Below are positions 14,907 through 19,760 of a DNA stretch of 32,486 bases, piece after piece. The notes beneath the pieces were generated by a model, which worked only from the letters and a program-made list of their open reading frames with translations, ran no database searches and was not told where the DNA came from. Location of the stretch: assembly GCA_031414955.1 (NCBI GenBank), contig JANOQV010000281.1:1-32486 (forward strand), given 5' to 3'. Made by a program: the position numbers and the translations under genes. The DNA comes from Pedosphaera sp. GTDB lineage: Bacteria > Verrucomicrobiota > Verrucomicrobiia > Limisphaerales > SIBH01. Position 1 is the first letter of the stretch, and the number at the start of each line of letters is the position of its first letter.

Positions 14907-17357
14907 CTAATCGCCGAGGATCTCCACCTCCGTCTCCAACTCAATCCCCCGCCGCGCTTTCGCCGTCTGCTTGATGAAGTCGATCAACTCCAGGACATCG
15001 CGCGCCGTGGCGTGGCCCTCGTTGACGATGAAATTTCCATGCACGGTCGAGACCATCGCGCCGCCGCGCTTGGTGCCCTTGAGTCCCAGTTCTTCGATAA
15101 GCTTGCCCGCCGGCACGGTCTTGGGGTTCTTGAAGATGCAGCCCGCGCTCGGTTGGGCCGGCTGCGACTCCCAGCGCTTGGCGTTGAACTGATTGGCGCG
15201 CTCCTGGATGACTTCCTTCGTGGCGGGCGTGCCGCGCAGCACCGCGCCGAGCGCGATGTGGGTCTTGAAAAGCGGACAGCCGCGATACTCGACATTTACC
15301 TCACTGGCCTTGCGCTCGTGAACGCCACCCGAGAAATCCATGAAGCGAATCTGCTCCACCACCTCGAACATCCACGAGCCCATCGCACCCGCATTCATGC
15401 GCAATGCGCCGCCCACGCTGCCAGGGATGCCTTCGAGAAACTCCAGCCCCGCCAGTCCGGCGCGGCGCGCGTCCACGGAAACCGTCTTGAGCTTCGCGCC
15501 CGCGCCGCAATGCAGATGCTCGCCGGTAATCTGCACCCGCGAAAAGCATTCGTGCCCGAGCGAAATCACCACACCACGAATGCCACCGTCACGGATGAGC
15601 AGGTTCGAGCCTCGGCCGATGAGGGTGAAGGGCAACTTCAGTTCGCCGCAGAGCTTCAACAGGGCGGCGAGATCGGTTTCGCCCGCCGGCTCGGCGAAGA
15701 AATCCGCCACCCCGCCGACGCGCAAGGTGGTGCGCTTGGCCAGCGGCTCGTCTTGACGGATGACCGTTTCAGCGGAAACAGCGACGCGAAGTTTTTGCAA
15801 TGTGCCGGCACGACGAGCATCGCGCGGCCCGGACTGCTGCTGGATCGAAGCATCACTCATGGTGTTTGATTCCTGCCGAGCAATGCTCGGCGCTCCTTCT
15901 CTCAATTGCCCCGCCAGTTCGTGCGCCGCCTTGGTGATGTCCCCTGCCCCGAGAAACAGGACCAGATCGCCGGGTTCCAGCGCGGCCCGCACGGCGGGGG
16001 TGACATCGGCCAGCGCGGGGATGAGTTCCACCACTTGACCGTGAGCGCAGATGGCCGCAGCCAGCGCCGCGCTGTTCGCTCCCGGAATCTCAGGCTCGCT
16101 GGCAGCATAGACCTCGGTGAGGAACAACTTGTCGGCATCACCGAAGGCTGCCGCGAAGTCGTTCATCAAATGCCTGGTGCGCGTGTAGCGATGGGGCTGG
16201 AAGACCACGACGAGCCGGCGCGGGTCGAGCTGTTTGAAGGCGCTCAACACCGCGCGCACTTCGTTCGGGTGATGCCCGTAGTCGTCGAACACGAGGAAGT
16301 TTTCGTCGGCAAAGATCTCCTGCTGGCGCCGGGCCGCGCCGGCGAAGTCTGCCAGCGCATCGCCAATTGCCGTTGGCGCATAGCCGAGTTGGTGCAGCAA
16401 GGCGATGGCAGCCGTGGCGTTGGAGACGTTCTTCCCCCCCAGCAGGCGGATGGAAAAGTCGCCCAGCTTCGTGCCGTGATGCCAGAGGGTGAAGTGGGTG
16501 GGCGATTCCCCGACCTTGGACGCCTGCTCGCGATTCATCGGAGTTGAACCTTGGACCTTGGACTCGATCCGGTATTGGGCCAGCGGGTTGAAGCCGTAGG
16601 AAACTGCCCTGGGCTGCTTCGCCATCATCTCGGCCAGTCGAGGATCATCCGCGCAGAAGACGATTAACCCGCGCGTGTTCGCCGCGAAGCCCTCGAACTC
16701 ACGGCAGACCGCTTCGAGGTTTGGAAAACGATCCAGATGCTCGGCATCGACGTTGAGCACGAGGGCGTGTTCGGGCTGGAATTCGTGCAGCGTGCCGTCG
16801 CTCTCGTCCGCCTCGGCGACAAACCATTTGGAGTGCGGTGACAAGTCACCGCACTCCAAGTGGGCGTGGGCCGGCCATTGCGGAACGAGGGCACCGATGG
16901 CGTAACTGGGCTTGGCCTCGAGCTTCCTCAGCGCGTGCGCGAGCAAGGCGGACGTGGTGGTCTTGCCGTGCATGCCGGCGACACAAATGCCTCGTTGCTG
17001 ATTGACGAATGCGGCCAGCAGAATCGCGCGCCGCACGATGGGAAGATTCAGTTCCCGCGCCGCCTGCAACTCGGAATTGTCCGCGTGGACCGCCGGAGTA
17101 TAGACGATGAGGACGGGGTGAGCCTCACGCAACTGGGCGGCGTGATGACCAATGTGGAGCTGTGCCCCGCGCGCGCGGAGCTGGCGGATTTCCTCATTCT
17201 CAGCGGTATCCGAACCGGTGACGCGATGGCCGGCATCGAGCAATAAATGCGCGAGGCCGCTCATGCCGCAGCCGCCCGCGCCGACGAGATAAACCGTGGC
17301 CCCAGGGGCCGCGTGCAGTAACGCGCTCACCTGCCCTGGGTTCAAGCTGTTCATCAT
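14907..17357 (-). CDS. murC-murB: Fused UDP-N-acetylmuramate--L-alanine ligase (MurC) / UDP-N-acetylenolpyruvoylglucosamine reductase (MurB)
   Basis: MurC motifs GAGGCGMSG, HGKTTTS, EADESDG, DDYGHHP, FQPHRYTRT, GAGDI. MurB motifs follow in frame: TTLRVGG, GSNLL, GIPGSVGGALRMNAGA, SAGCIFKNP, HGNFIVN. Start MMNSL at 17357 or 17354. Confidence 0.95.
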   Translation of the reverse strand: MMNSLNPGQVSALLHAAPGATVYLVGAGGCGMSGLAHLLLDAGHRVTGSDTAENEEIRQLRARGAQLHIGHHAAQLREAHPVLIVYTPAVHADNSELQAARELNLPIVRRAILLAAFVNQQRGICVAGMHGKTTTSALLAHALRKLEAKPSYAIGALVPQWPAHAHLECGDLSPHSKWFVAEADESDGTLHEFQPEHALVLNVDAEHLDRFPNLEAVCREFEGFAANTRGLIVFCADDPRLAEMMAKQPRAVSYGFNPLAQYRIESKVQGSTPMNREQASKVGESPTHFTLWHHGTKLGDFSIRLLGGKNVSNATAAIALLHQLGYAPTAIGDALADFAGAARRQQEIFADENFLVFDDYGHHPNEVRAVLSAFKQLDPRRLVVVFQPHRYTRTRHLMNDFAAAFGDADKLFLTEVYAASEPEIPGANSAALAAAICAHGQVVELIPALADVTPAVRAALEPGDLVLFLGAGDITKAAHELAGQLREGAPSIARQESNTMSDASIQQQSGPRDARRAGTLQKLRVAVSAETVIRQDEPLAKRTTLRVGGVADFFAEPAGETDLAALLKLCGELKLPFTLIGRGSNLLIRDGGIRGVVISLGHECFSRVQITGEHLHCGAGAKLKTVSVDARRAGLAGLEFLEGIPGSVGGALRMNAGAMGSWMFEVVEQIRFMDFSGGVHERKASEVNVEYRGCPLFKTHIALGAVLRGTPATKEVIQERANQFNAKRWESQPAQPSAGCIFKNPKTVPAGKLIEELGLKGTKRGGAMVSTVHGNFIVNEGHATARDVLELIDFIKQTAKARRGIELETEVEILGD
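16828..16859. repeat. Perfect 32-bp palindrome inside the murC coding region
   Basis: TTGGAGTGCGGTGAC-AA-GTCACCGCACTCCAA with 15-bp perfect arms, encoding LECGDLSPHSK. Confidence 0.9.
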
Positions 17358-19725: not shown

Positions 19726-19760
19726 AAAACCAGAACGCCGGGCGAAAATCGCCCGGCGTT
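19726..19760 (-). terminator. Intrinsic-terminator-like hairpin downstream of the LysM gene
   Basis: Perfect 12-bp stem AACGCCGGGCGA/TCGCCCGGCGTT (19734-19760). On the minus strand the stem ends in TT and is followed by CTGGTTTT, an imperfect U tract. Confidence 0.6.

Follow-up and report, generated by a model that had tools for sequence, protein, structure and literature searches.

A GGAG-tagged REP hairpin, probably a collapsed inverted dimer, encodes a turn peptide in the MurC-MurB fusion protein of a Pedosphaera genome

The analyzed DNA (the window, 32,486 nt from Pedosphaera sp.) contains a murC-murB fusion gene (14907..17357, minus strand), which sits in the dcw cluster, codes for 816 aa and carries three repeat-derived inserts, as assigned by Pfam, NCBIfam and a structure model. 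The MurC part scores above its curated cut-off (TIGR01082, 402.7 bits versus 335.1), has the P-loop GKTT and the EADESD motif, and is predicted to adopt the three-domain fold. The MurB part also exceeds its cut-off (TIGR00179, 204.6 bits versus 144.5). Named homologs of the fusion protein are mostly labelled Verrucomicrobia; a scan of contigs for MurC returned only 10 distant MurCs (29-36% identity). The strand W178-A183 and the conserved motif E182-x-D184-E185-S-D187 (16797..16826, minus strand) are intact and lie downstream of one of the inserts. The columns of this motif, which we take to be catalytic in MurC, are invariant in an alignment of 37 sequences.

This insert encodes the peptide LECGDLSPHSK (L167-K177, codons 16827-16859), directly N-terminal to WFVAEADESDG, and the MurC-MurB reading frame confirms this arrangement, which had been noticed in a first-pass annotation of the DNA. 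The same annotation described a perfect 32-bp palindrome. The element (16828..16859, minus strand) is instead a hairpin, because its 2-nt centre is unpaired (AA on the plus strand, TT on the coding strand), with two fully complementary arms of 15 bp; the described extension by 3 bp beyond one mismatch (16824-16863) holds. The arm length is above chance, the longest arms in 60 third-order Markov windows being 8-12 bp, and the predicted RNA fold has a z of -5.6. Such sizes are common in this repeat-rich genome, where 47 hairpins have an arm of at least 13 bp and a loop of at most 6 nt.

In two runs of one study, the region 16300-17300 was recovered in one contig with 0 differences (one of these runs may be the source). 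Contigs from a second study match over 16300-16859 with 14 differences, and none of the 12 that are listed lies inside the hairpin. In a related strain from this second study (runs X3 and X4), the sequence is unlike ours beyond 16859, for up to 1576 bases, and there is a divergent patch at 16713-16791. The unlike sequence may represent a rearrangement at the REP, an insertion or a chimeric contig.

A REP origin with related intergenic repeats had been proposed, and this is confirmed. The Pedosphaera genome (G000) has four clear loci of a GGAG-tagged REP, and ORF inspection places three of them between genes: a collapsed copy that is nearly identical (C149:23171), an inverted dimer in its full form (C149:10252) and one single copy (C208). 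The motif occurs in 13 of 13 genomes of the bacterial family, with 1-40 matches each (40 in G003, 29 in G008, 25 in G010) and 0-3 in reversed controls. In the monomer, one base separates the GGAG tag from a stem of 8 bp. Most copies are inverted dimers; the fetched loci yielded 25 distinct dimers of 55-164 nt, 9 of which have 103 nt. The family thus has the properties of REPs in being a repeated short palindrome, mostly extragenic, and in forming inverted dimers of the REPIN/BIME type. The tag 5' of the stem is not GTAG (or CGTC) but a conserved GGAG, which is one change from GTAG and places the family outside the published GTAG families in the strict sense.

GGAG REPs also lie within reading frames. 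Full dimers are in frame in the genes for IleRS (two genomes, same site), Mfd, glycogen debranching enzyme (twice), a DUF58 protein and a Type ISP protein, and a collapsed copy is in frame in UvrA. The copy in MurC is an in-frame repeat in a conserved gene that is missing from orthologs. A profile of the dimer peptide matched 141 representatives, but these are probably mostly spurious short ORFs, since a Pfam family was found for only 5 of the 73 that were scanned (those of at least 100 aa); the matches provide no usable proteome count. A sister REP family in the Pedosphaera genome forms outward-facing pairs 46 bp apart (contigs C51, C122, C129, C164, C178, C213, C231, C307 and others). As 19 of its 26 loci are at contig edges, this family fragments the assembly. 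No description of the GGAG family or of a MurC-turn hotspot was found in the literature within our view, which excluded figures, subscription papers and bioRxiv supplements.

A candidate transposase was found in relatives. A frame of 169 aa in G003 (L228, 626-1132 of G003:C98) lies among clusters of GGAG REPs and matches the model for REP-associated tyrosine transposases (NF047646) with an E-value of 1.9e-19 and 70 bits, which is below the cut-off of 80. RAYT-like relatives of this protein occur in 15 of 61 genomes. The three closest genes (100, 71 and 67%, from three families) have a GGAG REP on both sides, so that a cognate Y1/HUH gene flanked by the repeat exists in relatives. As a control, a GGAG REP was found near only 1 of 42 other Y1 loci. 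Eight of the 17 remaining RAYT-like loci have sister REPs with the same tag but a different stem. The link between the GGAG REP and the RAYT-like clade is an association, from which we infer that the RAYT-like protein may mobilize the repeat. The cognate gene was not found in the 95.9%-complete Pedosphaera genome, and none of its 12 Y1 genes is flanked by the REP subtype of the MurC hairpin. Several of these 12 genes (on contigs C262, C94, C172, C90, C184, C89 and C53) are flanked by their own GGAG-type REPs or by long inverted repeats. The RAYT-like clade (L228, L257, L258) is missed by a Pfam Y1_Tnp search, and within it the stems of the GGAG-tagged REPs vary in step with the transposase sequence.

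The hairpin had been interpreted as the product of collapse of an inverted REP pair, and full and collapsed forms at the same sites in relatives support this. Each monomer is itself a palindrome, so direct repeats of 8 bp are common to both halves of a dimer, and deletion between these repeats leaves a 28-nt core like the MurC hairpin. At one matched site, a 103-nt dimer in G013 corresponds to 28 nt in its sister G012, the flanks being 98.2% identical over 500 bp on each side. In the gene for a Type ISP protein, G003 has 151 nt and G063 has 28 nt. At the C-terminus of an MmeI-type protein, P0021 has the full peptide and G063 the collapsed one. The fourth site is in MurC of another clade, where P0185 has the full form and P0162 and P0168 have the collapsed form (these proteins are mutually 82-91% identical). 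The deletions of 75 and 123 nt preserve the reading frame, and by count the same would hold for 13 of the 25 dimer lengths. Among 331 genomes, 15 contain collapsed 28-mers, at 31 loci in total. Most of these loci have no recognizable gene frame, and 7 of the 31 are in a single genome, G050, which has a cognate RAYT.

The intact symmetry of the hairpin had been taken as a sign of a recent event. We do not retain this argument. Symmetry dates the event poorly because a collapse makes the inner stem from one self-complementary monomer, and because template switching can homogenize the arms of inverted repeats, as described for yeast genes in the part of the report available to us (PMC8604942). 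The failure to find the cognate transposase in the genome also speaks against it.

The host site was compared across relatives. The loop survey covered 130 murC loci, of which 10 without a readable loop were dropped. In the remaining 120, the distance from HGK to EADE ranges from 48 to 107; it is 54 in the Pedosphaera MurC and 50 in the shortest turns of the same genus. An in-frame insertion into a short turn had been proposed, and the turn is indeed longer, by 6 residues than in H. influenzae MurC and by 4 than in the shortest members of the genus. Such a small excess over the shortest same-genus turns implies that the peptide replaces the native turn and is not a clean insertion. Among 113 full orthologs, only residues 167-181 and 265-291 are widely varying interior segments. 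Within the order, no other part of MurC varies as much in length as the turn, which in these 113 orthologs has 7 to 66 residues between anchors and no common sequence. As anticipated, the peptide is mostly missing from orthologs: a GGAG REP is in the turn in 3 of the 120 order-level loops and, by reading, in 5 of 120 database homologs. Within the genus, the dimer is full in G010 and decayed in G001, and 8 of the 11 members have no such element. The closest MurC found (P0142, 85% identity) lacks the peptide and has a different insert. The other clade with full and collapsed forms (P0185, P0162, P0168) is 61% identical to the Pedosphaera MurC, and P0162 has the identical peptide.

In quick-search trees of MurC, the three carriers G000, G001 and G010 do not form one clade (p-AU 4.5e-7), and 8 carriers require 5 changes, at least 4 of which are forced by well-supported branches. 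Judged by these trees, the MurC turn carries the GGAG family in at least four separate lineages. Within the element, 7 of 7 codons are the same in G000 and G010, compared to 46% for the codons of conserved residues in the rest of the gene (p about 0.005).

Five other palindrome families in the turn were confirmed as repeats in their own genomes: those of G008/G009 (39 and 58 matches), G200/G314/G334 (8, 15 and 24 matches, and none in the short-loop sister G162), G015 (4 matches), G093 (155 matches) and G203 (4 matches). The turn of G003 contains a long palindrome whose class is represented at 52 loci in the Pedosphaera genome, and runs of the heptamer ACTCCGC are found in the turn of G012, G013, G237 and G268. 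The turn insert of G018/G101 was considered as a REP dimer and rejected, because these genomes have no other copy. A repeat is recognizable in about 16 of the 120 loops, and most long loops have no visible repeat.

Since single-sequence structure prediction reached a pLDDT of only 38.5, an alignment-based model was used (pLDDT 93 overall and 74 for residues 171-180; TM 0.87-0.88 to H. influenzae MurC). The motifs are intact in the MurC with the insert, and the fold is predicted to be intact. The peptide had been placed next to the catalytic motif. This is correct in sequence, but it is modelled as a lower-confidence loop ahead of strand 178-183, at the far end of which is E182. Reckoned from five strand residues, the peptide would be roughly 16 angstroms from E182. 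Genome-wide, repeats of three classes were scored in coding frame at 6 of 52, 15 of 47 (the heptamer loci, see below) and 7 of 51 scorable loci (12-32%), compared to 310 of 600 random 40-mers (52%); the counts are rough lower bounds, as the classifier missed the second and third inserts of murC-murB and made one false hit (C231). Such a depletion is as expected if only tolerated insertions survive.

The second insert (16512..16564, minus strand) is in the second hypervariable loop (residues about 265-291). It is a 53-bp element of heptamer repeats (GTCCAAR) with a fixed internal cassette and has 7 other copies in the genome at 89-96% over 45-55 bp. The cassette held by the heptamer array has about 21 bp, and the unit of 45-55 bp occurs at least seven more times. 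The third insert (15807..15896, minus strand) is in the linker between MurC and MurB and is a GGAGCGCCGAGC-type REP dimer with a decayed right arm. Genome-wide, its family gives 65 strand matches, compared to 0 for the reversed control. As the insert is also present in G004, G005 and G008 (nested with another REP in the latter), it is older. The spacer of the linker dimer (15807-15896; L002, L003, L005, L006) is similar to the linker E-x-x-x-M-S/N-D that is native to relatives without the repeat, as though the arms flanked host DNA. In G008, the second REP dimer is nested in the left arm, and the linker of G009 has a third family.

The claim of three repeat events in one essential gene thus stands for the events, as all three inserts are genome-wide repeats. 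We are unsure if murC is essential in this genome, because half of the relatives have no murC and because the genome also codes for Mpl (above cut-off, G000:C16:3374-4753). MurC scores above the cut-off in 30 of 61 relatives and MraY in 59 of 61, which rejects the idea that relatives without murC also lack the peptidoglycan genes; four inspected dcw clusters are without murC. In about half of the order (relatives G014-G060; loci L248, L250, L251, L252), mraY and the dcw cluster are retained and no murC scores above the cut-off, and an Mpl-like ligase is nearly universal. In relatives without murC, Mpl may supply the MurC activity, or the cells may rely on recycling. According to the accessible text of one report (PMC3060825), Mpl and MurC are not normally interchangeable, but overexpressed mpl complements a thermosensitive murC mutant.

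We consider it probable that the MurC hairpin is a collapsed inverted REP dimer, which preserved the frame, lies in a tolerant surface turn and is likely neutral cargo. The GGAG REP, present between and inside genes across the bacterial family and mostly as dimers of about 103 nt, would be spread by the RAYT-like clade of HUH tyrosine transposases that it flanks. A full dimer, as seen in relatives, would once have occupied the MurC turn of the Pedosphaera lineage and would have read LECGDLSP...DKSPHSK. Deletion between the 8-bp direct repeats, as observed at other sites, would then have removed the spacer and one monomer-equivalent, possibly through hairpin-promoted slippage or annealing at replication. 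A 103-nt dimer would lose 75 nt, and the loss would be a multiple of three whenever both ends are read in the LECG frame. The enzyme is predicted to tolerate the insert because the turn is at the strand end opposite the conserved Glu. Apart from the many collapsed loci and the low-scoring RAYT-like protein, which was not found in the Pedosphaera genome, two observations stand against this reconstruction. No full-dimer precursor was found in the lineage of the Pedosphaera MurC itself, and about seven native codons were removed or replaced at insertion, a loss for which simple cut-and-paste does not account.

The missing precursor would also fit with a short hairpin that is itself mobile, having collapsed once elsewhere and entered murC when it was already 28-32 nt long. 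The abundance of collapsed loci and the seven copies in the genome with a cognate RAYT suggest that the short form may move on its own, several of the 31 loci are letter-identical, and the Pedosphaera genome has a second collapsed copy. We nevertheless regard this as rather unlikely, given the four sites where relatives have the full dimer at the same position. In addition, the centre (AA or TT) and inner-stem variants differ among collapsed copies, as separate crossovers predict. An older history is improbable. It would involve a single insertion at the base of the genus, homogenized through template switching or gene conversion and missing from the other members because of loss or overwriting, or recombination of the segment between species. 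The elements of G000, G001 and G010 do share the right junction, where they abut W/F-F-V, and all three lack the native turn; the divergent patch beside the hairpin in the related strain and the template switching known from yeast would also fit, and the AU test rejects a single carrier clade but not a gain followed by losses. However, at the left junction G000 differs from G001/G010 by one codon, the copy in G001 is decayed while that in G000 is intact, the element is absent from most of the genus, and the same family is in the same turn of a clade that is only 61% identical.

Selection for the hairpin or its peptide, either as an mRNA structure that tunes translation or decay of murC-murB or as a partner-binding loop, is very improbable. 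The strong predicted RNA hairpin, the intact arms and the identical peptide that arose in the second clade (P0162) would agree with it. Against this, the turn varies so widely in length among orthologs and has no shared sequence, the same peptide is found in unrelated proteins (UvrA, Type ISP), and coding frames have fewer repeats than random placement predicts. The collapsed form might in principle be a full dimer that was shortened artificially during assembly or library preparation, since amplification can skip strong hairpins, all genomes compared are fragmentary assemblies and the read evidence consists of contigs. This is hardly credible, as the 1001-bp stretch is identical in a contig from two runs (of the same study, one of them possibly the source), the contigs of the second study match through the last base of the hairpin, the exact repeats between dimer halves have only 8 bp, and full dimers assemble normally in this genome.

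Going beyond the preferred reading of one collapsed dimer, one may imagine an order-wide cycle of insertion, collapse and overwriting, in which RAYT-driven REPs and other small repeats would keep acting on the same few turns of core enzymes. Dimers of 28 nt plus a multiple of three would enter genes, collapse in frame and repeatedly rewrite the same 11-residue peptide in MurC and in unrelated proteins. The MurC turn would then be a true target-site hotspot rather than the site of survivors, affordable because Mpl backs a MurC that was lost in half of the order. We consider this doubtful.

Palindrome-stimulated deletion, the loss of DNA between two short direct repeats that a hairpin has brought close to each other, is a familiar process. 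In the GGAG dimers, unlike the usual case, the direct repeats are inside the arms, which leaves a smaller perfect-armed hairpin and an intact frame.

A repeat-to-peptide process in Verrucomicrobia, as postulated by the first-pass annotation, does occur but is not new. Di Nocera et al. 2013 (PMC3733652) report intragenic GTAG/CGTC REPs, with the highest GTAG count and 70 rows for Opitutus terrae in the part of the paper covered here. As with GTAG-17/18/19 of O. terrae, verrucomicrobial REP singles and dimers are in frame in housekeeping genes. This text also mentions genes with two insertions, dimers that have lost the spacer and neighbouring bases, and recB inserts that are at the same site in two Xanthomonas species. 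For alphaproteobacteria, it lists a MurB and a MurC, one of each, with a REP peptide at the N-terminus. In its main text, however, GGAG has 0 occurrences, and the LECGDLSP peptide is absent from the O. terrae rows examined. The inserts of related genes described there are mostly at different sites, whereas the MurC turn was repeatedly hit by at least six families, and the GGAG family differs from those cases in having full and collapsed states matched at single sites.

The GTAG tag and the cleavage of REPs by RAYTs are defined in the accessible text of PMC8266576. The REPtrons and REPIN/BIME dimers described there share with our family a tetranucleotide tag 5' of a short stem-loop, inverted dimers, an HUH tyrosine transposase gene flanked by cognate REPs, and sister RAYTs that carry sister REPs. 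The GGAG tag, a RAYT-like protein below the NCBIfam cut-off and a cognate gene that was not found in the Pedosphaera genome are differences. Rickettsia palindromic elements, as summarized in the covered part of PMC3733652, are likewise palindromic repeats translated in frame in conserved proteins; RPE-1 is longer than REP inserts, and that text makes no transposase link for it. The Pedosphaera element differs in having 32 nt, in being RAYT-linked and in belonging to a free-living lineage with a 6.5-Mb genome.

Repeat-derived peptides in proteins are largely known, and this is not a new kind of element. What is new is a REP family that is tagged with GGAG and has a candidate transposase, sites at which full and collapsed states can be matched, and an enzyme turn that is used repeatedly. 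The spread and decay of REPs are described as poorly understood (PMC8266576, accessible text). Insertion and collapse become testable here, because one conserved frame can be compared in its empty, full-dimer, decayed and collapsed states and a candidate transposase can be paired with the GGAG-tagged repeat. Neither selection nor common descent is needed for distant orthologs to acquire identical peptides from repeat DNA, a point that is relevant to phylogenies and signature-indel markers. In MurC-MurB, the inserts mark three insertion-tolerant sites. Elsewhere in the window, a hairpin with 12-bp arms (19734-19760) between the LysM gene and ftsW is likely a terminator or another REP.
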